The notes: generated by a model not told the origin, from the letters alone. A stretch of 64,000 bases of DNA from a virus (IMGVR_UViG_3300008267_008434), one strand, 5' to 3'. Shown: positions 12,716-59,253, counted from the first letter of the stretch. Numbers and translations are program-made.

Positions 12716-12746
12716 TAATTATTTGTATATTTGTAAAAAAAACAAT

Positions 12747-27991: not shown

Positions 27992-27999
27992 TATCTTTG
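27992..27999 (+). promoter_or_regulatory. -7 box TAtcTTTG with TTTG about 19 nt upstream
   Basis: TAnnTTTG, 24 nt before the ATG at 28024. Confidence 0.4.
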
Positions 28000-28023
28000 T
28001 GATGTAATTAAAACCAAAACATT

Positions 28024-42141: not shown

Positions 42142-42158
42142 TTTAATATCTTTGAGGT

Positions 42159-43842: not shown

Positions 43843-43846
43843 AATA

Positions 43847-43872
43847 AAAGGAACTTAGGTTCCTTTTTTTAT
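43847..43872 (+). terminator. Rho-independent terminator
   Basis: ggaac-ttag-gttcc followed by ttttttt. Confidence 0.55.
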
Positions 43873-43886
43873 TTAATTCTTTTTCA

Positions 43887-43894
43887 TATCTTTG
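43887..43894 (+). promoter_or_regulatory. -7 box TAtcTTTG, 4 nt before the ATG (leaderless-type)
   Basis: tatctttg-tggt-ATG. Confidence 0.45.
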
Positions 43895-43898
43895 TGGT

Positions 43899-44288
43899 AT
43901 GGAAAATACATTATATATCGTAAGAGGAATACCAGGTAGTGGTAAATCAACATTTGCAAAAACTTTAGGTGGACAACACTATGAAGCGGATATGTTCTTC
44001 ATTGATGAGAATGGTGTGTATAATTTTGATTTCACTAAAATAAAAGATGCGCATCAATGGTGTCAGAGTTTTGTTAAATCTGATATGATATTGGAATATC
44101 CCAAGATTGTGGTTTCAAATACATTCACACAAGAGTGGGAGATGCAACCATACATTGATATGGCGAAAGAACATGGGTATAAAGTATTCACTATTGTAGT
44201 TGAGAATAGACACGGAGGTGTAAATGAACATAATGTTCCCGAACAAGTTTTAGAAAATATGCGTAATCGTTTTGAAATTAACCTTTAA
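43899..44288 (+). CDS. P-loop polynucleotide 5'-kinase-like protein (T4 Pnk kinase-domain-like, AAA_33)
   Basis: 'GIPGSGKST' Walker A and 'HYEADMFF'. C-terminal 'VPEQVLENMRNRF' parallels the T4 Pnk kinase 'VPIDVLRSMYKSM'. Confidence 0.55.
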   Translation: MENTLYIVRGIPGSGKSTFAKTLGGQHYEADMFFIDENGVYNFDFTKIKDAHQWCQSFVKSDMILEYPKIVVSNTFTQEWEMQPYIDMAKEHGYKVFTIVVENRHGGVNEHNVPEQVLENMRNRFEINL

Positions 44289-44940
44289 CCAAAAACTTTT
44301 TAAAATCGGTTGTTGAAGGTTTTTCATTTTTAAAGTAATAAGTTTCTGTTTTACCATTATAAGTTATTTTCTTATAATATCCATCAGGAACCGTGGCGCC
44401 TGATTTGAGTATTGTGGATTTTTTTGAAAATACACAAATTACAATAACAGACACCTCATACTTTAATGCCAATTCTCTTTCATACGCTTCTAATAAACGC
44501 CAAGTGGTTCTATTGAGATCTTGTTGTTGTAATGTACAGTTAAGGTAACTAAATGTTTTCTTTAACATAATCTTATCACAATTAAAATCTGCGGCAGGTG
44601 CCATATGTCCCTTGTCCCAAATGTTATTTTCATAATCTTTTGAGTCAGATGTTTTAACAGAATCACAAGTGAAGAAATCCATACCAGATCTTGATGCATT
44701 ACCTGACGGACAATCCACGGTATAACTCACAGATAAAGGTTGTTCTAATTTCTCAGAATAAACAACGGTAAAAATATCACTTTTAATGATTACACTATCT
44801 CTTAATGGTTTTTGAGATAATAAAATAAAAGGGAAAATAAAAAATAAGGATAATAAAAACTTTTTCATTTCAATAAATATCAATATATTTGCAATTATGG
44901 GATTTAAAAAAATATTAACGACAGGAAAAGTGTTCATCAC
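44278..44940 (-). CDS. Secreted DNA/RNA non-specific endonuclease (NUC/Serratia-nuclease family)
   Basis: Signal peptide 'MKKFLLSLFFIFPFILLSQ'. Active-site 'DKGHMAPAADF' (DRGH motif). Confidence 0.6.
   Translation of the reverse strand: MMNTFPVVNIFLNPIIANILIFIEMKKFLLSLFFIFPFILLSQKPLRDSVIIKSDIFTVVYSEKLEQPLSVSYTVDCPSGNASRSGMDFFTCDSVKTSDSKDYENNIWDKGHMAPAADFNCDKIMLKKTFSYLNCTLQQQDLNRTTWRLLEAYERELALKYEVSVIVICVFSKKSTILKSGATVPDGYYKKITYNGKTETYYFKNEKPSTTDFKKFLVKG
44884..44891 (+). promoter_or_regulatory. -7 box TAtaTTTG, 5 nt before the ATG
   Basis: tatatttg-caatt-ATG. Confidence 0.45.
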
Positions 44941-45550
44941 AAGTGATACTCACTATGGACACAAAAATATATGTCGTGGTGTGACAAATTGGAGAACACA
45001 AGATGGTGAAGTACCGGTAGATTCTACTCGTGATTTTCAAACTATTGAACAAATGAACCAACGATTGGTTGACGGTATTAATAGTGTTGTTGGACAAGAT
45101 GATACCTTAATTATGTTGGGTGATGTTTCATTCGGAGGATTTGATAATATTGGAATCTTCCTTGAAAGATTGGTTTGTCACAACATTCACCTCGTACTTG
45201 GAAATCATGATCATCATATTGAGAACAACCGTGATTATGTACAAGGGAGATTCCTGAGTGTACAACACTATTTGGAGGTGAACATCAATGGGAAAGACTT
45301 TGTACTTTGTCATTACCCATTACAAAGTTGGAACGGATTGAATAAAGGTGTTATTCATTTACACGGTCATGTTCACTTACCTGAACACCGTAAATTTGGT
45401 AATGGTAAAAGAATGGATGTTGGTGTTGATGGTAACGGTATGGATCCATATAATATTGATGATATCATTAGAATTATGGGTAAAATACCTGTTGGTTCTG
45501 ACATGAGTGGTGATCATCATTTGGATGGTTTGGTTGGAGTTGTGGGTTAA
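44897..45550 (+). CDS. Calcineurin-like metallophosphoesterase
   Basis: 'ITSDTHYGH', 'LGDVSFGG', 'LVLGNHDHH', 'HLHGHVH' motifs. Confidence 0.6.
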   Translation: MGFKKILTTGKVFITSDTHYGHKNICRGVTNWRTQDGEVPVDSTRDFQTIEQMNQRLVDGINSVVGQDDTLIMLGDVSFGGFDNIGIFLERLVCHNIHLVLGNHDHHIENNRDYVQGRFLSVQHYLEVNINGKDFVLCHYPLQSWNGLNKGVIHLHGHVHLPEHRKFGNGKRMDVGVDGNGMDPYNIDDIIRIMGKIPVGSDMSGDHHLDGLVGVVG

Positions 45551-45576
45551 ATCACAACTCCTTTATATTTATATGT

Positions 45577-46827
45577 ATGAAGAAAAATTTAATCATTACT
45601 GAAAATCAACTTGAGATTATTGTAAATAATCTCTTACTGAATGAAGCCGTTGGAGTTCCTGAAGGAATCATTGAATCGGCTGAAGAACTATATGAAATCA
45701 TATTAAACCTATTAAAAGGTATGGATGATTACGACACAACACAAACATTTACTGAAGATAATTTAGATTTAACAATATCTGATTATAAAATACACGAATT
45801 AGAGTTAGCAGTTCAAGTTCACGAAATGGATGAATATGATGGACCATTCACTATGATATCAGCCGGTGTTGCAAATCAATTTAATTTTGATAGAAAACTA
45901 CTAATGAAGGTTCATAAACAGGATAACACAATTGAGTTACAATTACATTTTGCATCAAATGGGGATGATTGGGATTCCCAAGACCCTTATAATTACTTTA
46001 CTAATGATAGAGTTCAATTAATATCTGTAATTGCTCACGAAATTAAACATAAGTTTGATAAACAAAAAAAGACAACTGACTTGATAGGGAAAGATGCTGA
46101 TTATCAAGCATATGCAAGTCAAGGGTTAAACTTCGGAATTCCGGTTATTAGTGAATTTATGAGATATAGTTATTTCATTCAATATGTTGAAAATCTTGTT
46201 AGACCAACTGAAATGGCAACAAGAATGAAATTAACTGGAGTAACAAGAGAAAAGTTTAGAGAATTTTTTGAAAATGATAGTGTTGTTAAAGAACTAAAAG
46301 AAATTAGAGATTTTAGTTTTGAACATTTTATGGAAGAATTACATAATCAAATGGATCGTGTGGATGGTTTATTAGAACACGCAGATGTGGATTATGAAAA
46401 TATGACTGAAGAGGAAAAAATAAAGGTAGTTATGGATATAGTTTATATTAATCTTATTAGTGCTAAAAGAGATATTTTTGATAAAATGACGGATAGTGTT
46501 GATAGTGAAATGGCTAATTTTATGAGAATGTTAGGTATGGGTGTTAAGCGTGAGAACGATGAAGGATTGGAAAAAGTTAGACATAAATATTTAAATCAAC
46601 TTGCCAAATATCGTAATAGAGAAAGTCAGTTCTTTGTTGATGAATGTGAAAGATTTAACTATGTTGCAACAAAATTAATTAAACGACTTGTAAAAATATA
46701 TTCACTTATTCCTGACGAAAAAGAACAAACCAACGAATCAATTCTTAATTGGGAGTTACACCAACAAATAATGGAGAAAAAATACGGAAAAAGAAAAATA
46801 GAAAAAGAGTTTAAATTTAAACGGTAA
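45577..46827 (+). CDS. Hypothetical protein with leader-like N-terminus 'MKKNLIITENQLEIIV'
   Basis: 416-aa ORF. Confidence 0.45.
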   Translation: MKKNLIITENQLEIIVNNLLLNEAVGVPEGIIESAEELYEIILNLLKGMDDYDTTQTFTEDNLDLTISDYKIHELELAVQVHEMDEYDGPFTMISAGVANQFNFDRKLLMKVHKQDNTIELQLHFASNGDDWDSQDPYNYFTNDRVQLISVIAHEIKHKFDKQKKTTDLIGKDADYQAYASQGLNFGIPVISEFMRYSYFIQYVENLVRPTEMATRMKLTGVTREKFREFFENDSVVKELKEIRDFSFEHFMEELHNQMDRVDGLLEHADVDYENMTEEEKIKVVMDIVYINLISAKRDIFDKMTDSVDSEMANFMRMLGMGVKRENDEGLEKVRHKYLNQLAKYRNRESQFFVDECERFNYVATKLIKRLVKIYSLIPDEKEQTNESILNWELHQQIMEKKYGKRKIEKEFKFKR

Positions 46828-46833
46828 AATATA

Positions 46834-46861
46834 ATCCTTCACTTTTGTGGAGGATTTTTTA
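46834..46861 (+). terminator. Rho-independent terminator
   Basis: atccttcac-tttt-gtggaggat (one G-U pair) followed by ttttttatt. Confidence 0.55.
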
Positions 46862-46872
46862 TTATTCATAAT

Positions 46873-47241
46873 ATGAAAAAACTATTATTATTTATTCCAC
46901 TAATTACACTATTATCATTTAAATCATCAGAAAAAATCTACACAGGAACCGCATCTTATTACGGACAACATTGGACAGGTAGAAAGACATCATCAGGAGA
47001 ACTATTCCACAAAGACAGTTTAACTGCGGCTCATAAGTACTTTAAGTTCGGAACAATTGTGAAAGTAACAAACACAAGTAATGATTCTGTTAGATATGTT
47101 AAGATCAACGACAGGTTACCAAAATCATCAAGTTTTGTGATTGATTTGAGTTACGGAACCGCAAAGGAACTTAACTTCATTAGAAAAGGAATCACCAAAG
47201 TGACACTTGAACCAGTTGACACAGTTCCGATTAAGAAATAA
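46873..47241 (+). CDS. Secreted RlpA-like double-psi beta-barrel (DPBB) protein
   Basis: Signal peptide, then 'GTASYYGQHWTGRKTSSGELF...LTAAHKYFKFGTIVKVTN...VRYVKINDRLP', which is the RlpA/expansin-like DPBB signature. Confidence 0.6.
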   Translation: MKKLLLFIPLITLLSFKSSEKIYTGTASYYGQHWTGRKTSSGELFHKDSLTAAHKYFKFGTIVKVTNTSNDSVRYVKINDRLPKSSSFVIDLSYGTAKELNFIRKGITKVTLEPVDTVPIKK

Positions 47242-47247
47242 ATTTTA

Positions 47248-47281
47248 CAAACCCCACTTCAAATAAGAGTGGGGTTTTTTG
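47248..47281 (+). terminator. Rho-independent terminator
   Basis: aaaccccact-loop-agtggggttt followed by tttt. Confidence 0.65.
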
Positions 47282-47301
47282 TTTAATCAGATATTTATTA
47301 A

Positions 47302-47309
47302 TAAATTTG
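47302..47309 (+). promoter_or_regulatory. -7 box TAaaTTTG, 4 nt before the ATG
   Basis: taaatttg-taaa-ATG. Confidence 0.45.
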
Positions 47310-47313
47310 TAAA

Positions 47314-47610
47314 ATGAAAAAAGTAATAAGACTAACCGAATCAGACTTGACAAGAATAATCCAAAGGGTTATTACCGAATCCAAAAAGAAACAAAGTAAA
47401 TCTGAAATATTAAAGATGTCAAAAGAAGAATTGGAAGATGTTTATGGTGAATTGGAAATAAAGGGTGAATACCATGGAAAAAAAGGAACATTCCACCATT
47501 TTAAAAAAGCTATGTTTGATGTTGTTTGTAGTTTTAGAACTGACGATACAACACCATCAGGTTTAAAAAGAAATACAAAAGGAATTAAAGTTAAAAATTT
47601 AGATATTTAA
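47314..47610 (+). CDS. Small basic protein, leader-motif paralog 1 (MKKVIRLTESDLTRIIQRVI)
   Basis: 98 aa, Lys-rich. Shares the N-terminal ~20 aa (and ~45 nt) with the next two genes and with the gene at 31860. Confidence 0.55.
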   Translation: MKKVIRLTESDLTRIIQRVITESKKKQSKSEILKMSKEELEDVYGELEIKGEYHGKKGTFHHFKKAMFDVVCSFRTDDTTPSGLKRNTKGIKVKNLDI

Positions 47611-47614
47611 TGTT

Positions 47615-47947
47615 ATGAAAAAAGTAATAAGATTAACCGAATCAGATTTAACAAGGATTGTTAAACGAGTGATCAATGAAAATAAGAAAAAACCATCAAA
47701 TGAAAAAATTGAGGATGTGTTAAAAAAACTTATGGATGATTACATTGGTGAGGATGAATGGAAAGGTGGTTATAAAGAATCGTCAGATAAACCATATGAC
47801 AGATTTATGGTTAGTTTTAAACAATCGGGGGATGACACCGAAGAGATTGCTGAAGAAATCATTGAGAAACTAAATAATAAATTTGAAAGTAACTTATTTA
47901 AACTTGGTAACGCAAGTAAAAACTCATTTTGGTTTTATATAAAATAA
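47615..47947 (+). CDS. Small protein, leader-motif paralog 2 (MKKVIRLTESDLTRIVKRVI)
   Basis: 110 aa. Tandem paralog. Confidence 0.55.
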   Translation: MKKVIRLTESDLTRIVKRVINENKKKPSNEKIEDVLKKLMDDYIGEDEWKGGYKESSDKPYDRFMVSFKQSGDDTEEIAEEIIEKLNNKFESNLFKLGNASKNSFWFYIK

Positions 47948-47951
47948 TGAT

Positions 47952-48299
47952 ATGAAAAAAATAATTAAACTAACCGAATCAGACTTGACAAGAATTGTTA
48001 ATCGTGTGATTAAAGAAAATGAATCTAAATCTGATTTATTAGACTTAACCGTTTTTCAGTTGAGAAAAAAATTGGGTTTACCTAGTGGGTGTAAGATTGA
48101 GATTAAAAAGGGTGATGTTTCAGGAAAGAAACTTAAATATACTAAATATGTTAAATACATTATTACTCAATTACCGTCACCTGTTGACGGTAATCGTGAA
48201 AAAATAATGGATAAAATAGAATCATTAGAATCTAAAGATATTAATTCTCATGCATCACCCAATTTTGGAAAGGGAGTGACTTGGATTATTAAATACTAA
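47952..48299 (+). CDS. Small basic protein, leader-motif paralog 3 (MKKIIKLTESDLTRIVNRVI)
   Basis: 115 aa. Tandem paralog. Confidence 0.55.
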   Translation: MKKIIKLTESDLTRIVNRVIKENESKSDLLDLTVFQLRKKLGLPSGCKIEIKKGDVSGKKLKYTKYVKYIITQLPSPVDGNREKIMDKIESLESKDINSHASPNFGKGVTWIIKY

Positions 48300-48323
48300 A
48301 AGTATAACATATAAAAAATATTT

Positions 48324-48357
48324 AACCTCCCTTCAGAAATGTTGGGAGGTTTTTTGT
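48324..48357 (+). terminator. Rho-independent terminator
   Basis: aacctccc-loop-gggaggtt followed by ttttgtttt. Confidence 0.65.
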
Positions 48358-48376
48358 TTTATTAAAAAGTAATTTG

Positions 48377-48384
48377 TATATTTG
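48377..48384 (+). promoter_or_regulatory. -7 box TAtaTTTG, 4 nt before the ATG
   Basis: tatatttg-tgtt-ATG. Confidence 0.45.
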
Positions 48385-48388
48385 TGTT

Positions 48389-48589
48389 ATGAAAAAACCC
48401 TGTAAAGAATGTCCTCATATCGTCCGTAATCGTCATAATGATATGATTGTTGATTTTGCTGAGAGAACCGGTAAGAAACACAATTGTCATATGACGGAAG
48501 GAAAAAAAGATTTGTGGAATGTAACGGATAAAAAATTGTATAAATGTGGGAGGACATTGGAAATTGTTATCTTACTTCCCAACCCTTGA
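48389..48589 (+). CDS. Small Cys/His-rich (zinc-binding) protein
   Basis: 'CKECPH...HNCH...CG' cluster. Confidence 0.4.
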   Translation: MKKPCKECPHIVRNRHNDMIVDFAERTGKKHNCHMTEGKKDLWNVTDKKLYKCGRTLEIVILLPNP

Positions 48590-48636
48590 AGAGGCGAAAA
48601 AAATTCTTAAAAAAAGAATTGATAATGTAAAATAAT

Positions 48637-48729
48637 ATGGAACTACTAATTTTAATAGGATTTATAGGATTTTGTTTAGGTAATATATTTCAAATACTGA
48701 TAAGAGATTATTATTTTAAACGCAAATGA
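48637..48729 (+). CDS. Tiny 30-aa hydrophobic peptide with basic C-terminus (MELLILIGFIGFCLGNIFQILIRDYYFKRK)
   Basis: Unlisted ORF in an otherwise non-coding gap. Single TM. Confidence 0.2.
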   Translation: MELLILIGFIGFCLGNIFQILIRDYYFKRK

Positions 48730-48814
48730 AATTTTTTAAATATTTCATATAACGTCCGATGATCAACAATCGTTTTAATGTTGTTTATTTTTTGTCATAT
48801 TAAAAAATAATTCT

Positions 48815-48822
48815 TATATTTG
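48815..48822 (+). promoter_or_regulatory. -7 box TAtaTTTG, 4 nt before the ATG; TTG at 48792
   Basis: tatatttg-tggt-ATG. Confidence 0.45.
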
Positions 48823-48826
48823 TGGT

Positions 48827-49030
48827 ATGGAAAAAACGACAGATAAAAACGGAAGGGACATCAAAGTGGGTGACTATGTTAAGGTAGTTAATAGAATTAC
48901 AGGATCTGTAGAAGATTCTGGTGTGATTACCAAAATTGAAGGTAGACAAGTTCATCTTGGTGTTGAATCTGTAAATGGTGTGTCATTTGATAACATTTAT
49001 TTAAGAGGGGATGTAATTAAACAATATTAA
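48827..49030 (+). CDS. Hypothetical small protein
   Basis: 67-aa ORF. Confidence 0.4.
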   Translation: MEKTTDKNGRDIKVGDYVKVVNRITGSVEDSGVITKIEGRQVHLGVESVNGVSFDNIYLRGDVIKQY

Positions 49031-49034
49031 TGTT

Positions 49035-49361
49035 ATGGAAACAATAGATAATACAAAATTGAGCACCGATAAGTTAAAGGTGTTTGTTGATAGATTGAAC
49101 AAGATTGGTATTGAAGTTAAACTTTCAGGAAATTTCCCGTGGATTTATATTAATGAGATATGTGGTATAAGAGTAACTGAAAAGTTTGAAGCAAATCACG
49201 GATTTACTGTGATGTTTCTTCCAGGTAGAAATGACTCACCACCATCCGAGTTTACAGATATCACCGAGATATTCAAATTGATTAGAAAATATAATAGAGA
49301 GTCTCTTTTAAGAAAAATAATGGAAGATGATCAAAAAAACGGATTGTATGAAACTGAATGA
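49035..49361 (+). CDS. Hypothetical protein
   Basis: 108-aa ORF. Confidence 0.4.
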   Translation: METIDNTKLSTDKLKVFVDRLNKIGIEVKLSGNFPWIYINEICGIRVTEKFEANHGFTVMFLPGRNDSPPSEFTDITEIFKLIRKYNRESLLRKIMEDDQKNGLYETE

Positions 49362-49737
49362 ATTAAGGGTGGGTAGTATTGTTACCCACCCACTATTTGG
49401 AACACCAACAGAAGTTAGAGCAATCGCATTTAACGGACTATACATAGGAACGGAAGATGGATTACCGATACACATTGATGACTTCAAACCCGTTGAGATA
49501 ACTGAAAAAATACTAGACTTACTTCATTTTGTTGAAATGTCAGATACCGCACCTGGTATTGGTGAATTTCATTGGTGGGAAACTGAAAGTATTACACTAA
49601 CACACCTTTATAAAGGTTTATATGGAATTCAGGGTTTTAGTGATATTAAACCTATGAGATATGTTCACCAACTACAAAATGCTTGTTTTGTCATTGATGG
49701 TGAAGATTTGAACACAACAGATTTGTTAATGATGTAA
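49327..49737 (+). CDS. Hypothetical protein (start uncertain)
   Basis: 136-aa ORF. An internal Met at 49348 is possible. Confidence 0.4.
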   Translation: MIKKTDCMKLNELRVGSIVTHPLFGTPTEVRAIAFNGLYIGTEDGLPIHIDDFKPVEITEKILDLLHFVEMSDTAPGIGEFHWWETESITLTHLYKGLYGIQGFSDIKPMRYVHQLQNACFVIDGEDLNTTDLLMM

Positions 49738-49739
49738 TT

Positions 49740-50066
49740 TTAGAATCTTTTATTATGATAAAATTTGTATAACTGTTTAATCGTGTCCTCAAGCATATCA
49801 GAAACTTCTGTCACAAAGTCTATTTCCTCTTGTTCTGGTAAATCCTCCCACCCAAGTTCATAATTATTCCACATAATTGATTCTACCGCTCTTAAAGTTA
49901 AGTCATATTTAAAACCTCTATAACTTTCAGTTTCGTAATACACTTGTTGTGCATTAATTGAAAGTAACTTCTTAACCTCATCTAAATCAATTCTTCTACG
50001 GAAGAACTTTGTTTCATTCAATAATTCTTCCCTCAATATTCTTCTTATGTTTTCTTGTAGGTTCAT
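49740..50066 (-). CDS. Leader-motif paralog (MNLQENIRRILREEL)
   Basis: 108 aa, minus strand. N-terminus near-identical to the next gene. Confidence 0.5.
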   Translation of the reverse strand: MNLQENIRRILREELLNETKFFRRRIDLDEVKKLLSINAQQVYYETESYRGFKYDLTLRAVESIMWNNYELGWEDLPEQEEIDFVTEVSDMLEDTIKQLYKFYHNKRF

Positions 50067-50068
50067 AT

Positions 50069-50518: not shown

Positions 50519-50564
50519 ATTAAAATAAATATCCAAAAATATTGTTTGGTAAATATAAAATGAT

Positions 50565-50572
50565 TACTTTTG
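50565..50572 (+). promoter_or_regulatory. -7 box TActTTTG, 4 nt before the ATG, in a divergent promoter region
   Basis: tacttttg-taaa-ATG. Confidence 0.45.
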
Positions 50573-50576
50573 TAAA

Positions 50577-51113
50577 ATGAAAATGGACTTAACTAAACTT
50601 ACAATGGACGAACTTATTTCTTTAAGAAATAAAATTGAAGGACTTATTCATTCATATGATGATGGGTATTTGTATATCTGTTCTGTTCGTCAGTTCGGTA
50701 GTGTGTGGGAAGAAAGACCAAGTAGTTTACATTCTTTAAAAGAACTTTGTGGTGAATACAATGGAGACAATGGTATTGTTGATGTATATACCAACAACCC
50801 AAATTTGAAATTCCCTGAGATGGATTTTTATAATTATGGTGATGTTATGTATATCAAATCCGAAGATGATTATAGACAATGGAATAAGTACAATAAGGAT
50901 AAAAACCTAATTGAGGATGTAACACAACGACTTGAAGATTGGGAAAATAAAGACAATGTTCCGTTTAGTTACCGTCCACATTTTGCTCCATTTTGGACAA
51001 GAGAAGAATTGAATGAATGGATCACAGAGTTTGAAAACACTGTTTGGGATTTCACCCCACCAGTTTCAATGAAAGTAGATGAATATTATGATGATGAAAA
51101 TGAACAAGATTGA
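50577..51113 (+). CDS. Hypothetical acidic protein
   Basis: 178-aa ORF. Confidence 0.45.
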   Translation: MKMDLTKLTMDELISLRNKIEGLIHSYDDGYLYICSVRQFGSVWEERPSSLHSLKELCGEYNGDNGIVDVYTNNPNLKFPEMDFYNYGDVMYIKSEDDYRQWNKYNKDKNLIEDVTQRLEDWENKDNVPFSYRPHFAPFWTREELNEWITEFENTVWDFTPPVSMKVDEYYDDENEQD

Positions 51114-51705: not shown

Positions 51706-51729
51706 TGTTGTGGTATAAAAAAATTATTA

Positions 51730-51737
51730 ATATATTT
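51730..51737 (+). promoter_or_regulatory. -7 box TAtaTTTG, 5 nt before the ATG
   Basis: tatatttg-tcaaa-ATG. Confidence 0.45.
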
Positions 51738-51742
51738 GTCAA

Positions 51743-52004
51743 AATGGAAGTAGAAAAATTTGAACAAGCAAAAAAAGTTAAAGAAGATCTTGATAGATTG
51801 GAAAGACAGAAGTATAAATTAGAATCTGCGCTTAAATCTTGTGGTTTGAGTGTCACGATTGGATTTACACACTCTGGAGGTTTCAACGGAAAAGGTGAGG
51901 TTAGTTTCTATAACAAAGAGATTATTAAAGAAATGATAACCAAAGAACTTGAGAGGTTGAATGAAGAAATAGATTTGGTAAAAGAAGAATTTGAAAAATT
52001 GTAA
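51743..52004 (+). CDS. Small coiled-coil protein
   Basis: Start at MEVEKFEQ after the promoter box. Confidence 0.4.
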
Positions 52005-52107
52005 AAAAAGAAAATATGATAGTGTATCTTGTAGGAGGAATTTGTATGGGTGTAATGTTGAGACCATATGTGGATAAATTAATAACAAATTATGTTAATA
52101 GAAAATA

Positions 52108-53238
52108 ATGGAAAATCAAAATAGCGTAGCATATGTTGGAAAAATAGGTTCAGTAGTTGAAATACCAAATGCTGACAACATAGAACTTGTACTTGTTGGT
52201 GGATGGCAGGCGATAACCAAAAAAGGTGAATACCAAGAAGGAGATAAAGTTGTTGTTGCAACCACTGATGCGGTAATACCACAAGCATTGTCTGACTTGA
52301 TGGAAGTGACTAACTACCTTCGTAAAGGACAACGAGTTAGAACCGTAAAACTTCGTGGATTTTATTCCGAATGTTTGTTAATACCATTCAAGTACTTGGC
52401 ACCAAAATCATTGGTGAACAATGTTAATGAAGGTGATGATATGATGGAAATACTTGGAATAACCAAATACGAACCACCGGTTAAAATGGTTACTTTGGGT
52501 GGAGGTAAGAAAGTTAGATACCACCAAAATCCAAACTTCCATATCTATCACAAATTCCCAAACATGAAGAATGTTCCTGATATGTTCACCGAAGAAGATG
52601 AGGTTGTTATCACCCGTAAAATACACGGAACTAATGCCAGATTTGGAATAGTTAGAAAGAAAAAACTTTCTTTGTGGGATAGAGTGAAAAAGTTCTTCGG
52701 TAATGAGTGGGTTGAGTTTGAATATGTGTATGGTTCTCATAATGTGGAGAAAGGATCTGATTCTCAAGGATTCTACGATACTGATGTGTGGAGAGAAGTT
52801 GCCAACAAATATGACATACGAAAAAAACTTTGGGATCATGTTAAGGATACATATTACCCTGAATCTTTGGAACAAGGACTTACTATCTATGGGGAAATCT
52901 ATGGTAAAGGAATCCAAAAAAACTATGAATATGGTTTGGAGGAAATAAAGTTTGTTGGTTTTGATGTTGAAGTTGATGGTGTTTATCAACCACACCTTGA
53001 AGAAACCGTTCATTTTGATTGTTTGGAACTCCCACAAGTTGAAGTATTATATGAAGGAACTTGGAGTAAAGAAGAACAAGATAAATATGTCTTCGGTAAT
53101 TTTATAAAAGGAACCAAAGTTCCTCACGAAGGTATCGTTGTTAAATCTGTGACTGGTGATCGTCATAAAGTTGCAAAGGTTATCAATCCTGATTATTTAA
53201 TATATGGGGAGAAAAATAATGTTGGTGACTCCCATTGA
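52108..53238 (+). CDS. ATP-dependent RNA ligase (Rnl2-like nucleotidyltransferase)
   Basis: Motif I 'RKIHGTN' (KxHGT), motif IV 'HEGIVVKS', motif V 'KVAKVIN'. Confidence 0.6.
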   Translation: MENQNSVAYVGKIGSVVEIPNADNIELVLVGGWQAITKKGEYQEGDKVVVATTDAVIPQALSDLMEVTNYLRKGQRVRTVKLRGFYSECLLIPFKYLAPKSLVNNVNEGDDMMEILGITKYEPPVKMVTLGGGKKVRYHQNPNFHIYHKFPNMKNVPDMFTEEDEVVITRKIHGTNARFGIVRKKKLSLWDRVKKFFGNEWVEFEYVYGSHNVEKGSDSQGFYDTDVWREVANKYDIRKKLWDHVKDTYYPESLEQGLTIYGEIYGKGIQKNYEYGLEEIKFVGFDVEVDGVYQPHLEETVHFDCLELPQVEVLYEGTWSKEEQDKYVFGNFIKGTKVPHEGIVVKSVTGDRHKVAKVINPDYLIYGEKNNVGDSH

Positions 53239-53277
53239 TGGAGTCATCATTTTTTCATATAATTAAAAAAAGAAATT

Positions 53278-53544
53278 ATGAGTAGTGTTAGAGTTTATGT
53301 GGACCTTGATGATGTCTACGATGAGATGGATAGAAGTGACAAAAGAACTATGGCTCAGTGGTTACACGATGACGGCATATTAGAATCACACCCAAATCCT
53401 GAAATAAGAAAAGTTGTTAGAGGTGATATAGAATCTCAAGGAGAAAAAGAATTAAGAGATAACCTCACAAAACTATGGAACAATTATTACCTACTAACAA
53501 ACGAAGAAGAAGAATTAATTAAAAAACTTTCAAGTAGATTTTAA
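53278..53544 (+). CDS. Hypothetical small protein
   Basis: 88-aa ORF. Confidence 0.4.
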   Translation: MSSVRVYVDLDDVYDEMDRSDKRTMAQWLHDDGILESHPNPEIRKVVRGDIESQGEKELRDNLTKLWNNYYLLTNEEEELIKKLSSRF

Positions 53545-53545
53545 T

Positions 53546-53965
53546 ATGAGACATCACGCAAATTTCTTCATTAACCGACTTGCAACTGAATGGTTAAAAA
53601 ATGGTAAATTGATTATTGGTTGTGATCTTGATGACACAATAATTCCATATAATGAAGAATTAAAAGAACATTGTCAAAAAGTTGTTGACTTGATTTTGGA
53701 ATGTCAAAAAGAAGGTATTATATTTTTAATTAATACTGCAAGAAGTGAACGACAATTGGAAACCGCAAAAGAACAAGTTGAAAAGTTGGGTATTGAAGTT
53801 CATGGGGTAAATCAAATGCATCCTGAGTGGGATAAACCATATGGGATGAATGGTAAGATATATGCAAACATATTCCTTGATGATAGAGGTGGAATAAAAA
53901 GTACATATTGGGATTTAAGTGAGGTTTTATCAATAGTAAAAAGAGAAAGAAGAAATGAAAAATAG
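53546..53965 (+). CDS. HAD-superfamily phosphatase (small)
   Basis: 'IIGCDLDDTII' DxDxT motif I, with 'INTARS' as a motif II-like Thr/Ser. Confidence 0.5.
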   Translation: MRHHANFFINRLATEWLKNGKLIIGCDLDDTIIPYNEELKEHCQKVVDLILECQKEGIIFLINTARSERQLETAKEQVEKLGIEVHGVNQMHPEWDKPYGMNGKIYANIFLDDRGGIKSTYWDLSEVLSIVKRERRNEK

Positions 53966-54200
53966 AATAGAAACAAGACAAATTATTTTTGGTGTGTATG
54001 AAAAAGGACACGGATGTGATTCATATGTGGGTTATTTTAAATTTGAAAATGATGCAAAAAAAGAACTCAAATCTCAGATGAATCGACTTAAAGAAGAATA
54101 TGGGACTTCAGATCTTGAGTTGAAAAACGATAGAGTTGTTAAGGTTGATGGTAGAACAGAAGAAATATTTTTTATTATTCATCCAATTGTATTAAGATAA
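53955..54200 (+). CDS. Hypothetical small protein
   Basis: 81-aa ORF. Confidence 0.35.
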   Translation: MKNRIETRQIIFGVYEKGHGCDSYVGYFKFENDAKKELKSQMNRLKEEYGTSDLELKNDRVVKVDGRTEEIFFIIHPIVLR

Positions 54201-54204
54201 AATT

Positions 54205-55179
54205 ATGGGACTAAAACATTTAAAAGAACAGAATCCTGATTTGAATATCAATTTAATTGATTTGATTTCCAAATTGGATCCGACTAAAACAAAAAAGTTA
54301 ACACCTTTATTAATTAAGATGTTAAAAGATGGTATTGAAATTCGTAAAAATGATATGTATTGGGGCGGGAATGAAAATGACTCACCAACAGTAAAAATAA
54401 TTAAAGAATTACCCGATTCAAAAATGACACTTTTGAATTGGTTGTGTGTAAATTATTTCAATGTGGAAAATTTGGATAAACTTCCCCTATTTACAGAATA
54501 TCTTGAAAGAGGATTGGTGGAAAATACGGACATATCAACATATAAAGATTTCAACGACATAATTAGGGAAGTTGGAAAGGCAGCAACTAAAGAGATGTTG
54601 AAAAAATCCAAAAAGGATATTATGATTGTTCACGACGACGATGAATGGTTATTCTTTAAACCATTAACTCACGATGCTGCGATTACATATGGGTTTGGAA
54701 CAAAGTGGTGTACATCAATGAAGAACGATGGTGAGTACTTCTATAGATATTCGGCACAAGGAGTTTTGATTTATGTAATAAATAAAAAGACAAACAGAAA
54801 GTTTGGTATTCATAGTAATAATGAGGTTAAAATTGGTATATATGATGAAGTTGATAATCATATTGATTCATTTGAAACTGGTTTACCTAATGAATTGATT
54901 AAAAAACTTTTTGAGTGGTTGGATGTTAAAACTAATCATACTAATTATGACTTGTTCTCACCTGAAGAAAAAATTAAGAGTCGTAAACATTATTTCAATG
55001 GGAAAGACGAAATTATAGAACTAACCGAACAAACTATGGATGAACTTCCAATTCCTGTTGAGGATATGATGATGGAAGAGCCAAGATTGGTACCAAGAAT
55101 GGCACCAAGGTTAGTACCGATGACTATACCAATGAGAAATTATCCTGCAATTTTAAGAGATTTTGACGATTTACCATAA
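54205..55179 (+). CDS. WC[TS]-domain protein (paralogous domain with the 25800..27644 gene)
   Basis: 'IMIVHDDDEWLFFKPLTHDAAITYGFGTKWCTSMKNDGEYFYRYSAQGVLIYVINKK' aligns with the middle of the LRR protein. Confidence 0.45.
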   Translation: MGLKHLKEQNPDLNINLIDLISKLDPTKTKKLTPLLIKMLKDGIEIRKNDMYWGGNENDSPTVKIIKELPDSKMTLLNWLCVNYFNVENLDKLPLFTEYLERGLVENTDISTYKDFNDIIREVGKAATKEMLKKSKKDIMIVHDDDEWLFFKPLTHDAAITYGFGTKWCTSMKNDGEYFYRYSAQGVLIYVINKKTNRKFGIHSNNEVKIGIYDEVDNHIDSFETGLPNELIKKLFEWLDVKTNHTNYDLFSPEEKIKSRKHYFNGKDEIIELTEQTMDELPIPVEDMMMEEPRLVPRMAPRLVPMTIPMRNYPAILRDFDDLP

Positions 55180-55208
55180 ATAAATTTGTTTTAATTAAAG
55201 TCTTTTAC

Positions 55209-55216
55209 TATATTTG
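55209..55216 (+). promoter_or_regulatory. -7 box TAtaTTTG, 4 nt before the GTG start
   Basis: tatatttg-caaa-GTG. Confidence 0.4.
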
Positions 55217-55220
55217 CAAA

Positions 55221-55427
55221 GTGAGATTGGGTAAAAGAAAATATAGGATGGTTCTTGATGAACGAAACAAAAGATTCATAATTGAAAAAAAAGTGGATCT
55301 TTTGTTTATTAAATATTGGAGTAGAAGATATCTACGAAACAATAATGATACTTTTTACCATACTGAAGAACATACTTTGGCAAGAAAGATTGTTAACATA
55401 TTGAATGGGAATGAACATCTTATTTAA
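55221..55427 (+). CDS. Small basic protein (GTG start)
   Basis: 68-aa ORF. Confidence 0.35.
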   Translation: MRLGKRKYRMVLDERNKRFIIEKKVDLLFIKYWSRRYLRNNNDTFYHTEEHTLARKIVNILNGNEHLI

Positions 55428-55499
55428 AAATAAAATTTTAGTTTACTATTGACACAATAAAATAAAAAACCTAAACTTTCACTTATAAAAAATAAAGTT

Positions 55500-55934
55500 A
55501 TGACAATTAAACAAGCGTTAAAAGCAAAAAATAAACTCGTCAAAAGTATTGGTGAGAATACAAAATTAATGCAACAGTACAACTCTGTTGAAGTAGGTAA
55601 CCAACGACCATATAGCACGGAAGTATTATTCAACCAAATCAGTAAAGACACTTTAGAGTTGGCTGAATTAAAATCTAAAATCCATAAGGCAAACACTCCG
55701 GTGTTGGGGGACATTTTTTATATGTCAGAATTGAAGTCAATGATTCAGGCTCTTAAGAAAATGGATTGTACCGAAGGTAAATCAAACAAAGATAGATACC
55801 GAATGGAGAGTGAATTGGTGATGACATCTGAAATTTCATTGGTAACAAGAAATGAAATGGTTAAGTCAATGGAGGATAGAATTGAGAACATCCAAGATAA
55901 GTTGGATATTTTCAATGCAACCACTGAGATTTAA
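55500..55934 (+). CDS. Hypothetical protein
   Basis: 144-aa ORF. Confidence 0.45.
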   Translation: MTIKQALKAKNKLVKSIGENTKLMQQYNSVEVGNQRPYSTEVLFNQISKDTLELAELKSKIHKANTPVLGDIFYMSELKSMIQALKKMDCTEGKSNKDRYRMESELVMTSEISLVTRNEMVKSMEDRIENIQDKLDIFNATTEI

Positions 55935-56116
55935 TATGGTTTGGGGATAAGGTTAAAAGTATTGGTTTTTCTAACTATACGATCGGCTGATTTGATAATT
56001 GATTATGATATAGAAATAGTCCACTAAAATTGAACATTCAAATACTCAACCTGCATTTTATTAAAGCTTAAAACTCTTTTTTTGACCTATTTTAATCTTT
56101 GAAACAAACTATATAA

Positions 56117-56146
56117 AACCCCCAATGTAAGTTGGGGGTTTGTTTT
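56117..56146 (+). terminator. Rho-independent terminator
   Basis: aacccccaa-tgtaag-ttgggggtt followed by tgttttat. Confidence 0.6.
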
Positions 56147-56162
56147 ATATAAAAAAAATTAT

Positions 56163-56170
56163 TATATTTG
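56163..56170 (+). promoter_or_regulatory. -7 box TAtaTTTG, 4 nt before the ATG of a tiny peptide ORF
   Basis: tatatttg-tgat-ATG. Confidence 0.4.
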
Positions 56171-56174
56171 TGAT

Positions 56175-56255
56175 ATGGGATTATTGTTGTTTGTATTATA
56201 TACATCATTAGTTTTATTAATTGCGTATTTTTTTAAACACAAAAAAAATATGTAA
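56175..56255 (+). CDS. Tiny 26-aa hydrophobic peptide (MGLLLFVLYTSLVLLIAYFFKHKKNM)
   Basis: Unlisted ORF. Single TM plus basic tail. Confidence 0.2.
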   Translation: MGLLLFVLYTSLVLLIAYFFKHKKNM

Positions 56256-56354
56256 TGAATGTTGAAGAATTAATTGAGTATTTTCGTGAGGTACACGAAA
56301 GTGAACATAAGATATGGTTCACAATGGAAGAAATTGAAAAAATAATTAAAGAAT

Positions 56355-56594
56355 ATGGAAAAAAGAAGTAATCACTACGGAGATGTTGCAAAATGGATTG
56401 AAAAGGTTATTGACTCTTGTGAGACATACCAACAAACTTTTACTGCCAAAAAATTGATTAGAAATTTTAATGATCAACTAAGGAGAGACACTCCTGACAA
56501 GTATTGGGGAGATTATCAGTATAGTGTTATTTGGCCACTTGAGGCAATGGTAACATCCAAACGACAATCATTCATAAACAAAATTGAGGGGTAA
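56355..56594 (+). CDS. Hypothetical small protein
   Basis: 79-aa ORF. Confidence 0.4.
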   Translation: MEKRSNHYGDVAKWIEKVIDSCETYQQTFTAKKLIRNFNDQLRRDTPDKYWGDYQYSVIWPLEAMVTSKRQSFINKIEG

Positions 56595-57175
56595 TGAAAG
56601 TTATATTTTTGGATCACGATGGAGTTATTTGTCTTTCCAATAATTGGGGAGGACGAACGAAAAAATGGGCAAACTATCGTAGTGAAAACCCTGATAGTAG
56701 TAAGGAAAAAAAAGACGCTCCAGTATCTTTTCGTTTTGATGATTTTGACACTAAGTCGGTTAAAGTTCTTAATGAAATTCTTGAAGAAACAGGAGCTGAG
56801 ATTGTGGTATCTTCAGATTGGAAACTACACGCTACACTAGAAGAACTTGGTGAGTACTATGAGTTACACGGAATAAGTAAAAAACCAATATCATTAACAC
56901 CAAACATAGGTACGTGTACAGTTCATGGTAATTTATTTATTTGGTCCCCACGATGGGATTTAGAACAAACACGAACAATTGAAATTAGACAATATCTTCA
57001 TGATCACCCTGAAGTAACTCATTGGGTCTCTATTGATGACTTGAATATGGGTAAAATTGGTGAACCCTGGAAAGATGAGTGGGCGATAGATAATTTTGTA
57101 TTGACACCAAAATCAAACGAAGGTATTAAACAATCTGGGGTTAAAGAAAAGATATTAAAATATTTGAAAGATTAA
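56594..57175 (+). CDS. HAD-superfamily hydrolase
   Basis: 'KVIFLDHDGVI' DxDGx motif I. C-terminal 'VSIDDLN' Asp pair. Confidence 0.5.
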   Translation: MKVIFLDHDGVICLSNNWGGRTKKWANYRSENPDSSKEKKDAPVSFRFDDFDTKSVKVLNEILEETGAEIVVSSDWKLHATLEELGEYYELHGISKKPISLTPNIGTCTVHGNLFIWSPRWDLEQTRTIEIRQYLHDHPEVTHWVSIDDLNMGKIGEPWKDEWAIDNFVLTPKSNEGIKQSGVKEKILKYLKD

Positions 57176-57337
57176 TAAAATGAAGGATATAGTTGGGTGT
57201 GCTGATTATGATAGTATGGGGAATCACGGGAGATTCCCAAAATCAAAATATAAAGAGATGAAAACATTTAAAAGAGGAATTCAAAAAGTTATTTTATGGT
57301 TTTCATTTAAGTTTACCAAAAAAAGAAAAAAAGATAT

Positions 57338-57733
57338 TTGGGAATTGTAAAAAATATTGATATGACTAAAGAAGAAATGAATAAATACCTTGAGTCCATA
57401 GGCGGACTTGAGAATGGGTATTACACAGACAGACCACCGATTACAAAATGTGGATTCTTTGGTGTTGATAGTGGTTGGTACCCATTAATTAAAGAATTAA
57501 TTGAGGATTTAATTAAACTTGGGTGGAACAAACAAACTTGTCAAGTTAAAGAAAAATTTGGTGGTCTTAGATTTTATATTAATGAAGGTTCTAACGAGAT
57601 TTATGAAAGAATTGTTAAAGCTGAAAAAGATAGTTATGAAATCTGTGAAACCTGTGGTGAAAAGGGTAATATGAGAACAGATATTGGTTGGTATAGAACA
57701 TTATGTAATAAACACTATGAAGAGTATATATGA
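57338..57733 (+). CDS. Zinc-ribbon protein
   Basis: 'CETCGEKG...CNKHY'. Confidence 0.4.
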   Translation: MGIVKNIDMTKEEMNKYLESIGGLENGYYTDRPPITKCGFFGVDSGWYPLIKELIEDLIKLGWNKQTCQVKEKFGGLRFYINEGSNEIYERIVKAEKDSYEICETCGEKGNMRTDIGWYRTLCNKHYEEYI

Positions 57734-58025
57734 AATATTTAAAGGTAATGAACATCTAATAGATTTACATCCTGTTGAAGAGTTAATTGATTATACTCAA
57801 GAACTTGAGGGTATGATATTTGAAAAAAATATGGAGAAAGATAAAGAACACATCTTCAAATCAATGTTAGAGGATATACTTACCAGTTGTAATGAACTTG
57901 AAGAAAATAAATTACTTGTGGAAAGATATCCTGATTTGTATAAAAAAATGGATGCCGATATAATAGTTGAAAGTCTAAAAAAGTTTATTTTAGAAATGAA
58001 CAGAAATCATAGATTAGGGTTATGA
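57717..58025 (+). CDS. Hypothetical protein
   Basis: Start at MKSIYEIF. The listed 57684 start overlaps the previous gene. Confidence 0.35.
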   Translation: MKSIYEIFKGNEHLIDLHPVEELIDYTQELEGMIFEKNMEKDKEHIFKSMLEDILTSCNELEENKLLVERYPDLYKKMDADIIVESLKKFILEMNRNHRLGL

Positions 58026-58330
58026 AAAAAATTGAAATTAGTGAGGGTTGTTTTGGACCTGATGTTATGGTGGATGATGAGTCTTTATTCATGCACGAAT
58101 ATGATAACAGGAAACCTGAAATGATTACTGACTTACAGGACGAATTAATTGATGAATTAAAATCATTAAAGGATAAACTCGGTATGAATGATTGGTATCA
58201 GATTGCTGAAATGGTTGTTACTACTTCTGAAAAATACGAATACGATACGGAAGAATCTGATGAAGGAGATTCTTGTGGACAATGTGGAAATTATAATTGG
58301 AAATACATCTATAAAAAAGTGGAAAAATGA
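58022..58330 (+). CDS. Acidic small protein with C-terminal CxxC
   Basis: 102 aa, ends with 'CGQCGNY'. Confidence 0.4.
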   Translation: MKKIEISEGCFGPDVMVDDESLFMHEYDNRKPEMITDLQDELIDELKSLKDKLGMNDWYQIAEMVVTTSEKYEYDTEESDEGDSCGQCGNYNWKYIYKKVEK

Positions 58331-58680
58331 GAAAAAGTGTAAAGTTGGTATTGGTTGATCCAAATGAGTTACCGTATGTGGTTGCAAAACAACCAATAAT
58401 GAAAAATGATTTATATCTAACCCCAAACAATGAGATTAAAACTTGTGTTGGTGGTGAGACAAGAAAAGAATTAAGTGAATGTCTAAAAATAATGGCAACA
58501 CCTAATCAAGTACCTAATGATGAGAATTCATTAAAAAAATTAACAGAGATACTAAGTAGTGGTGGAGAGTTTGAATTGGAGATGGAAGATGAATTCACTA
58601 ACCCGAAAGCATTTGAAAATGTTGGATGGGGAGATGGATTACCACAACCTATTTTAGTTGATAATAAAATAGTAATATAA
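58327..58680 (+). CDS. Hypothetical protein
   Basis: 117-aa ORF with ATGA overlap. Confidence 0.4.
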   Translation: MRKSVKLVLVDPNELPYVVAKQPIMKNDLYLTPNNEIKTCVGGETRKELSECLKIMATPNQVPNDENSLKKLTEILSSGGEFELEMEDEFTNPKAFENVGWGDGLPQPILVDNKIVI

Positions 58681-58793
58681 AGAAGTATGTTAAGTATTAT
58701 TGAACAAGTTATGCATTTATCTGTAATTGGTTTAACCATTATAGTTATTACCGCACAAATAATTTTTGATGTTTGTTGTAAAGATTAAGTATT

Positions 58794-59045
58794 ATGTTAG
58801 AAGAAATTGTGGAGTATTATCAAGATGAGGAAATCCTGAAGGCGGATGGATTTGACGATGCGGTAATTGGAATTGATGAAAAATCAATGAGATTAATTTA
58901 TTCTGTGAGAAAATGTATTGAAATCTTAATCACCGAAGAAGATATGACTTTGGAAGATGCCTTAGAACATTTCAGTTTTAATGTTAGTGGATCCTATGTT
59001 GGAGAAAAAACACCAATTTGGTGTGAAGATATGTTTGAGAATTAA
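58794..59045 (+). CDS. Hypothetical acidic protein
   Basis: 83-aa ORF. Confidence 0.4.
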   Translation: MLEEIVEYYQDEEILKADGFDDAVIGIDEKSMRLIYSVRKCIEILITEEDMTLEDALEHFSFNVSGSYVGEKTPIWCEDMFEN

Positions 59046-59055
59046 AAATTTTTAT

Positions 59056-59063
59056 TATATTTG
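59056..59063 (+). promoter_or_regulatory. -7 box TAtaTTTG, 4 nt before the ATG
   Basis: tatatttg-tgaa-ATG. Confidence 0.45.
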
Positions 59064-59067
59064 TGAA

Positions 59068-59253
59068 ATGAAGAATCCAAAGATTAACACACCAAAGGGT
59101 GTTGGTGAAATTGAAACAGTGTATATTTCAGAATTAGGGTTCCTTATGATTCGTGTTTATTATGAGGACAAGACTTATGTTTCTTATAACCTTGGTAAAC
59201 ACGATGTTAATGAAAATGTATTCACAGATAAAATTATGAATGATGTCAGATAA
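59068..59253 (+). CDS. Hypothetical small protein
   Basis: Start at MKNPKIN, inside the listed 58981 ORF. Confidence 0.4.
   Translation: MKNPKINTPKGVGEIETVYISELGFLMIRVYYEDKTYVSYNLGKHDVNENVFTDKIMNDVR

Follow-up and report, generated by a model that had tools for sequence, protein, structure and literature searches.

Promoters of the Bacteroidota sigma-A type placed directly before start codons, and probable leaderless mRNAs, in an uncultivated phage family

In a 64,000-nt stretch of DNA from an uncultivated giant phage, IMGVR_UViG_3300008267_008434 (the window, on which all site coordinates are based), eleven genes carry the Bacteroidetes −7 promoter box, TAnnTTTG, just 4 or 5 nt upstream of the start codon (Table 1). 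We propose that these boxes probably belong to promoters of the host sigma-A type, possibly shared with a sigma factor encoded by the phage, from which transcription starts on the start codon itself, so that the first gene of each short unit is served by a leaderless mRNA. A preliminary description had listed ten such genes. Reading of the 70 nt upstream of each listed start recovered all ten boxes with their short gaps, as follows. The gap from the G of the box is 4 nt before the ATG codons at 43899, 47314, 48389, 48827, 50577, 56175 and 59068 and before the GTG at 55221, and 5 nt before the ATG codons at 44897 and 51744. The start given as 51743 is really 51744, and one site had been missed, with a box at 42147–42154 before the ATG at 42159 of a 91-residue open reading frame (ORF). 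All eleven boxes also match the stricter form TAHHTTTG, since G is absent from both N positions in 11 of 11.

The arrangement of box and start is real and not a product of chance. The spaced pattern TANNTTTGNNNNATG occurs 8 times in the window against an expectation of 2.19 ± 1.62, and none of 100 dinucleotide shuffles reaches 8; all 8 matches lie on the plus strand and all open ORFs. When the distance from box to ATG is tallied for ORFs of at least 25 residues at offsets of 0–40, there are 8 cases at offset 4 and 0–3 at any other, and the minus strand, tallied over the same offsets and ORF lengths, shows no peak. The bare 8-mer TAnnTTTG is only weakly enriched (129 versus 105 ± 9.5 in shuffles), and the signal thus lies in the position of the box, not in the number of boxes. 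A shuffle test had been proposed in the preliminary description; it places the spaced pattern above chance. The window is about 30% G+C with nearly all coding on the plus strand; intergenic DNA makes up about 6% of it, and all 11 boxes are intergenic. Among the most enriched intergenic 7-mers are ATCTTTG and ATATTTG, along with GGTTTTT, a terminator tail. The E. coli sigma-70 consensus is not enriched in the window (86 versus 98 ± 10).

The same layout recurs in related phages. Homologues of the RNA ligase (52108–53238) and the phosphoesterase (44897–45550) of the window led to 134 related IMG/VR loci, 1.95 Mb in all, on contigs of up to about 308 kb. These loci hold 2,571 unique TAnnTTTG contexts; in 182 of them an ATG stands at offset 4 and begins an ORF of 30 residues or more, against a background of about 15 per offset. 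An apparent second spacing class at offset 14 was discarded as an artefact, TAnnTTTG inside conserved coding sequence having been recounted across orthologues. The layout with the box next to the start precedes 52 distinct protein families, and the start codon at offset 4 is ATG in 175 cases, GTG in 18 and TTG in one. A scan blind to start codons, in which a site was defined by a TTG, a 19- or 20-nt spacer, TAHHTTTG and an A tract, found 203 unique sites; in 100 of them an ORF opens with RTG at offset 4–5, in 56 the leader is 8–60 nt long, in 5 the RTG-ORF stands at some other short offset, and the remaining 42 are without an ORF close by.

That the boxes are promoters is supported by features for which they were not selected. 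In Flavobacterium johnsoniae, the invariant promoter positions are T−12, A−11, T−8, T−7, T−6 and G−5, with a box TAHHTTTG and AT-rich tracts, and the transcription start site (TSS) lies 4–5 nt after the −7 box (Baez et al. 2019, PMC6847099). At 9 of the 11 window sites a TTG lies 18–20 nt upstream of the box, the spacer being 20 nt in seven cases and 19 and 18 nt in one each. This is the −33 spacing that the preliminary description had proposed for comparison, and in the seven sites with a 20-nt spacer the G of the TTG falls exactly at −33. In the 182 related sites the base frequencies are 0.75 for T−35, 0.87 for T−34 and 0.53 for G−33; an A tract covers −24 to −19, T is found at −10 and A or C at −9, G stays below 5% at both of these positions, T−4 reaches 0.84 and T−1 0.87, and from +1 onward there follow ATG and A-rich codons. 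This logo, with its pyrimidine at −1 followed by a purine at +1, is that of a Bacteroidota sigma-A promoter. Sites of the same type that do have leaders carry a purine at the fifth base after the G in 84% of cases, that is, at the same predicted TSS. Given the published distance from box to TSS, a 4-nt gap would make the A of the ATG +1, and a 5-nt gap would leave a leader of 0–1 nt. It is from this spacing that we infer the leaderless status of the mRNAs.

The box could instead act in the RNA: transcription would begin further upstream, and the motif would serve translation initiation or ribosome binding. Bacteroidota lack Shine–Dalgarno (SD) sequences and use the upstream sequence context for initiation (PMC6847099), and the motif occupies the position of a ribosome-binding site. 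However, the published Kozak-like context is A-rich and not TTTG, and the TTG at −33, the A tract and the 19–20-nt spacing reach about 35 nt upstream, which are traits of a promoter and not of a ribosome-binding site. Moreover, the same box lies 13–45 nt upstream of other genes, terminators stand directly before several of the sites, and copies of the same genes that lie inside operons do not have the motif. We consider an action in the RNA improbable in the extreme.

Orthologue comparison bears on whether the codon next to the box is the one that is used. Around 28 of 31 distinct upstream contexts of 42159 orthologues (57–93% protein identity) keep TAnnTTTG, 4 nt and ATG, although the N positions, the four gap bases and the upstream sequence all vary; three distant orthologues have a 16-nt leader. 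The orthologues of 43899 mostly show a hairpin, the box, 4 nt and ATG, and the rest are operon-internal with the same ATG. For 44897, many close orthologues are operon-internal, and a distant group (60–65% identity) has TAGATTTG-CAGT-ATG, again TAnnTTTG with a 4-nt gap. Many 48389 orthologues carry TACCTTTG-TAAG-GTG, that is, TAYCTTTG followed by 4 nt and a GTG at the predicted +1 (loci L005, L009, L057, L061, L062, L064, L066, L073, L075, L077, L078, L080, L082, L099 and L102). The 18 GTG starts at the predicted +1 in the family suggest that a 5′-terminal GUG is usable in the host group. The 4-nt gap is found in three contexts of 51744 orthologues, the others being operon-internal. Both orthologues of 55221 carry TACATTTG, 4 nt and an ATG at the position of the GTG, and the 59068 orthologue in L053 keeps TATCTTTG, 4 nt and ATG. 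Few or no orthologues of 47314, 48827, 55221, 56175 and 59068 are present among the 134 loci. The cassette is thus gained and lost gene by gene.

Were the true starts to lie downstream of the box-adjacent ATG, or the ORFs not to be genes, the transcripts would have ordinary short leaders. A few sites lend themselves to this reading. ORF 50577 opens ATG-AAA-ATG-GAC; in its orthologues the second of these ATG codons, 6 nt further on at 50583, is the start, and the promoter is mostly missing; the window copy seems to have gained both a promoter and a two-residue N-terminal extension. At 55221, which opens with GTG, an ATG lies 27 nt downstream, and for the 26-residue ORF at 56175 no orthologue was detected. 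For the rest, the evidence runs the other way. The tblastn alignments of 42159, 43899, 44897, 48389 and 51744 begin at residue 1, and relatives with operon-internal copies use the same ATG, from which it follows that the ATG next to the box is a real start codon. That ATG is the first of its own ORF in every case, and an ATG or GTG at exactly +1 before 52 families would not be expected to be conserved if it were unused. A genuine start codon at the predicted +1 is therefore supported by the alignments, weakly for 56175 and ambiguously for 50577, and downstream starts as a general explanation are very improbable.

Translation context is in keeping with a start of this kind. The preliminary description had held that the sites lack an SD sequence, which is borne out: a gap of 4–5 nt between box and start is too short for one, and SD cores are depleted upstream of window genes at large (7 of 114, versus 17.4 ± 3.7 in random windows), a depletion in keeping with hosts of the phylum Bacteroidota. 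Over their first 36 nt, the eleven predicted transcripts are nearly free of structure, with a mean minimum free energy of −0.78 kcal/mol, versus −2.67 kcal/mol in random windows (p = 4e-4); for other gene starts the mean over the first 36 nt is −1.26 kcal/mol.

How unusual the layout is can be judged against cellular DNA. In the phage-family loci the ratio of leaderless to leadered sites is 121:109; in the control, 0.51 Mb of Bacteroidota/FCB chromosomal DNA from around rpoD, it is 2:26. With coding DNA filtered out, the ratios are 194:232 and 7:95. The share of promoter-like sites that abut a start codon is about 60% in the window, about half in the phage family and about 7% in chromosomes. 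Short or absent leaders have been reported for 3.7% of transcripts in Bacteroides thetaiotaomicron (PMC7366714), 5.5% in F. psychrophilum (PMC9723704) and at most 13% in F. johnsoniae (PMC6847099), and in an older census one of 37 Bacteroidetes/Chlorobi genomes yielded leaderless genes, at 2.4% (PMC3160421). These controls indicate that the layout is the host's own rare architecture, made some 7–10 times more frequent in this phage family. Among other phages, Bacteroides phage B40-8 has about nine promoters of this kind, with leaders of 20–45 nt and none leaderless, and leaderless transcripts are absent from the jumbo phages phiKZ and AR9. In Flavobacterium phage 11b there are one or two sites of the leaderless type. 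One of these, at 21103–21118 (L215), has a T run, TATATTTG, 5 nt and the ATG of the annotated coding sequence PHG11b_43 (start 21116). Outside this phage family the layout is thus sporadic.

The phage does encode a sigma factor of its own at 13289–14089, as the preliminary description had it, and the protein has the Pfam regions named in Table 1. The protein scores as RpoD/RpoS-like, below every equivalog cut-off. Its closest cellular homologues are chromosomal primary sigma-A factors, with 39–44% identity over residues 15–259, from Bacteroidota (Hymenobacter, Sphingobacterium, Runella, Flavobacteriia, Crocinitomicaceae, Prolixibacteraceae, Bacteroidales and Saprospiraceae) and from their FCB relatives (Ignavibacteria, Chlorobiaceae and Balneolia). 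In regions 2 and 4.2 it keeps the Bacteroidota motifs VAKQYQNQGL, FISYAVWWxxQSI, RLPxN and ERVRQIKE.A.RRLR, at which E. coli differs, and in the alignment about 20 residues of region 3 are missing. By sequence, it is a diverged homologue of the primary sigma-A of Bacteroidota, and it is strongly conserved (77–94%) on contigs of up to 328 kb. Its nearest homologues give independent backing to the host phylum, Bacteroidota, that had been suggested from the boxes. A protein-database search with the phage sigma returned members of the phage family only and no host clue, and when the PDB was searched by sequence for a sigma-A structure from Bacteroidota on which contact residues could be mapped, only sigmas of Firmicutes, Actinobacteria, Thermus and Proteobacteria came back. 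A cultured relative was sought as well: megablast of 43–60 kb against GenBank phages gave no match, and tblastn with the RNA ligase and with the sigma gave at most 29% and 37% identity, respectively, none of it close.

The preliminary description had asked which genes depend on the phage sigma instead of on the boxes. The sigma is there, but the split is doubtful because a factor with the Bacteroidota signatures of regions 2 and 4.2 may read the same −33/−7 boxes. A related proposal is that the leaderless promoters are read mainly by the phage sigma and form a phage-specific middle or late class. The kept motifs and the 39–44% identity make binding of −33/−7 promoters by this protein plausible; leaderless sites favour the 20-nt spacer (90, versus 17 with 19 nt) where leadered ones are mixed (43 versus 34); and the shortened region 3 could alter the spacing or the choice of start site. 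However, the leaderless boxes fit the host consensus no less well than do the leadered ones, among them that of the sigma operon (12726); cellular promoters of Bacteroidota, too, often have a 20-nt spacer; the ORFs behind the leaderless sites are small and variable, a type usually expressed early; and no sequence feature separates two promoter classes. The spacer difference was set aside as evidence for two sigmas, being real but small, inside the host range and confounded by orthology. A second promoter motif for the phage sigma, TATATTTA, was likewise rejected; frequent by eye, it is not enriched in intergenic DNA once ATATTTG sites are removed. We regard a phage-sigma class as possible, though on balance doubtful.

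Returning to host-type promoters that start on the start codon, we picture the following sequence of events. RNA polymerase would start on the first base of the start codon, A (or G), making an mRNA with a leader of 0–1 nt. The ribosome with initiator tRNA would then recognise the 5′-terminal AUG or GUG of the first ORF by the leaderless route, and downstream ORFs of the unit would use the SD-less, A-rich internal initiation usual in the phylum. Several of the promoters are fused to the terminator of the preceding unit as compact cassettes of terminator, promoter and ATG. Since the boxes match the host consensus, host sigma-A would most likely fire them early in infection, and the phage sigma-A-like factor may take over later. 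The operon of the phage sigma has a standard box as its own promoter, so host sigma-A must act first.

Several points weigh against this proposal. The 43887 and 44884 sites lack the −33 TTG (2 of 11). The ORF at 56175 has only 26 residues and no orthologue among the 134 fetched loci, and the start used by 50577 orthologues would mean a 6-nt leader. GTG, with which 55221 opens, is a poor leaderless start in E. coli. Initiation may fall 1–2 nt away from the predicted TSS. Counts over the related loci, such as the 182 sites, are not independent, orthologous sites being counted repeatedly. Finally, leaderless mRNAs make up only 3.7–13% of host transcripts, and the proposal supposes that Bacteroidota translate them efficiently.

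Table 1. Promoter sites and the sigma factor gene of the window. The gap is counted from the G of the box to the start codon.
Feature	Coordinates	Strand	TTG	Box	Gap or leader	Start codon	Product and remarks
Leaderless-type site	42125..42161	+	42125-42127, 19-nt spacer	TATCTTTG 42147-42154	4-nt gap (AGGT)	ATG 42159	ORF 42159-42434, 91 aa
Leaderless-type site	43846..43901	+	none at -33	TATCTTTG 43887-43894	4-nt gap	ATG 43899	129-aa PNK-like ATPase; terminator hairpin 43846-43867 with T run
Leaderless-type site	44884..44899	+	none at -33	TATATTTG 44884-44891	5-nt gap	ATG 44897	ORF 44897-45550, 217-aa phosphoesterase; 28-nt gap to divergent minus-strand gene 44278-44868
Leaderless-type site	47249..47316	+	47279-47281, inside T tail	TAAATTTG 47302-47309	4-nt gap	ATG 47314	98 aa; composite cassette, terminator hairpin 47249-47277
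Leaderless-type site	48324..48391	+	48354-48356	TATATTTG 48377-48384	4-nt gap	ATG 48389	66 aa; composite cassette, hairpin 48324-48351
Leaderless-type site	48792..48829	+	48792-48794	TATATTTG 48815-48822	4-nt gap	ATG 48827	67 aa
Leaderless-type site	50542..50579	+	50542-50544	TACTTTTG 50565-50572	4-nt gap	ATG 50577	178 aa
Leaderless-type site	51708..51746	+	51708-51710	TATATTTG 51731-51738	5-nt gap	ATG 51744	86 aa; predicted leader 0-1 nt
Leaderless-type site	55186..55223	+	55186-55188, end of upstream box TAAATTTG 55181-55188	TATATTTG 55209-55216	4-nt gap	GTG 55221	68 aa
Leaderless-type site	56116..56177	+	56140-56142	TATATTTG 56163-56170	4-nt gap	ATG 56175	ORF 56175-56255, 26-aa hydrophobic peptide MGLLLFVLYTSLVLLIAYFFKHKKNM, overlapping small ORFs after it; composite cassette, hairpin 56116-56141
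Leaderless-type site	59035..59070	+	59035-59037, 18-nt spacer, end of upstream box TATGTTTG 59030-59037	TATATTTG 59056-59063	4-nt gap	ATG 59068	61 aa
Leadered promoter	12726..12749	+	19 nt upstream of box	TATATTTG 12726-12733	13-nt leader	ATG 12747	Heads sigma-gene operon
Leadered box		+		14133	23-nt leader	14164	
Leadered box		+		23009	29-nt leader	23046	
Leadered promoter	27992..28026	+	19 nt upstream of box	TATCTTTG	24-nt leader	ATG 28024	
Leadered box		+		41785	16-nt leader	41809	
Leadered box		-		TATTTTTG 50541-50534	15-nt leader	ATG 50518	
Phage sigma factor	13289..14089	+					266 aa; Pfam sigma-70 regions 1.2, 2, 4

Terminator-like hairpins are enriched in the region of these sites (16 versus 5.7 ± 2.5). 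A hairpin ends just before the promoter at 43846, 47249, 48324, 56116 and perhaps 59010, that is, at 4–5 of the 11 sites, and is absent at the other 6–7; where it is present, the T tail of the terminator runs into the −33 TTG. Among the relatives, 45 of 197 sites (about 23%) have a hairpin that ends between −39 and −33, versus 12 of 197 random positions. With a hairpin in that place, a promoter further upstream could not supply a leader. The sites with a hairpin resemble the PeSL (promoter-early stem-loop) cassettes of T4-type phages (Arbiol et al. 2010, PMC2839356). Those, too, are compact and join a strong promoter that fits the primary-sigma consensus of the host to an upstream AT-rich tract and a stem-loop terminator, and they share with the present ones a variable region, small ORFs of unknown function and the occurrence of the same gene with or without a cassette between relatives. 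In contrast, PeSL cassettes end in an SD sequence followed by the start codon, whereas those described here have no SD and place the start codon at +1; their stem-loop stands upstream, its T tail supplies the −33 TTG, and only a minority of the sites have it. The same gene being promoter-led in some relatives and operon-internal in others is the one hint of modular shuffling or mini-circle formation.

Some starts follow a hairpin and have no box. Those at 42982, 37206, 28815, 46873 and 53278 lie 4–25 nt after a terminator-like hairpin and T run, with no TAnnTTTG between, as in ggaatcagaaatggttcc-TTTTTTTTATTT-ATG at 42982. These genes would have to be expressed by read-through of the terminator or from an unrecognised type of promoter. 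The starts at 45577, 31552 (minus strand) and 41189 (minus strand) have TATATTTA, in which G−5 is changed to A, 5 nt upstream, two of them directly after a hairpin; these could be weak or variant leaderless promoters, but intergenic DNA is not enriched for the 8-mer.

The six genes for which the preliminary description gave a more distant box are correct, with the leaders listed in Table 1 (12747, 14164, 23046, 28024, 41809 and, on the minus strand, 50518). Between 50534 and 50572, two divergent promoters stand back to back in a 58-nt gap, the minus-strand one leadered (50518) and the plus-strand one leaderless (50577). All eleven leaderless sites lie at 42–60 kb, where the genes are small and poorly conserved, and mostly precede small ORFs without recognisable function. 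The leadered boxes are found mainly at 1–42 kb; the genes behind them are larger and conserved, among them the sigma operon and a DnaJ homologue. The latter (23046–23975) is a full-length DnaJ-type co-chaperone homologue (TIGR02349, 6e-73) with a leadered box at 29 nt.

The PNK-like ATPase at 43899 (phrog_2071/505), the phosphoesterase at 44897–45550 (phrog_547) and the RNA ligase at 52108–53238 (PF09414 and PF21189) fall within 10 kb and possibly form an RNA- or tRNA-repair set like T4 Pnk/Rnl. Of the three genes, the first two are headed by leaderless promoters; the third begins 103 nt after the short 51744 ORF, which has such a promoter too. The window has no tRNA genes and no Rfam matches. 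The minus-strand gene at 44278–44868 encodes about 196 residues; the N-terminus, MKKFLLSLFFIFPF, resembles a signal peptide, and a GHMAPAADF motif calls to mind secreted non-specific nucleases. With just 28 nt between it and 44897, the gene must have its promoter within the coding sequence of 44897; a clear box for it was not found.

The phage sites are much like the −33/−7 promoters (TTTG / TAnnTTTG) of the Bacteroidetes primary sigma, sigma-ABfr, known from B. fragilis, F. johnsoniae, F. psychrophilum and B. thetaiotaomicron. Both have the same −7 box, a TTG at −33, AT-rich tracts between the two and a purine start at the fifth base after the G; the difference is that bacterial leaders are typically 23–33 nt, whereas the phage sites often abut the start codon. 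With leaderless mRNAs elsewhere (lambda cI from PRM; Actinobacteria, Deinococcus–Thermus and their phages) they share +1 on the A of the AUG, the lack of an SD and an unstructured 5′ end. Those mRNAs, however, come from promoters with a Pribnow box at −10, not from −33/−7 promoters, and the host phylum of this phage rarely uses leaderless genes. Mycobacteria tolerate GTG at +1, to which we liken the phage GTG sites, and Thermus phage P23-45 reportedly has a high leaderless fraction. The mechanism, then, is already known, and the same architecture exists at low frequency in hosts, in other phyla and in their phages. What is new is how densely it occurs in a phage whose host phylum seldom uses leaderless mRNAs, and its packaging as compact cassettes; no paper describing these leaderless promoter–start cassettes was found in the open-access literature.

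It is tempting to go further and propose that leaderless mRNAs are this phage family's main mode for promoter-proximal genes, paired with its own truncated sigma-A-like factor in a portable, phage-specific cassette system. We think this unlikely. If true, cassette mRNAs might be translated preferentially or might escape host or phage attack on leadered mRNAs, and the shortened region 3 of the sigma might tune the start exactly onto the AUG.

For annotation, a box followed by 4 nt and RTG would serve as a sequence-only rule for start codons and transcription units in these abundant uncultivated phages, for which start calling is otherwise poor without SD sites, and it would also give a call of the host phylum. 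For engineering, cassettes of about 45 nt would be compact expression parts for Bacteroidota. As to the biology of these phages and their hosts, the proposal predicts that Bacteroidota ribosomes translate mRNAs with a 5′-terminal AUG or GUG to a degree on which a phage can depend, and it touches on the way in which translation is initiated in a phylum that lacks SD sequences.

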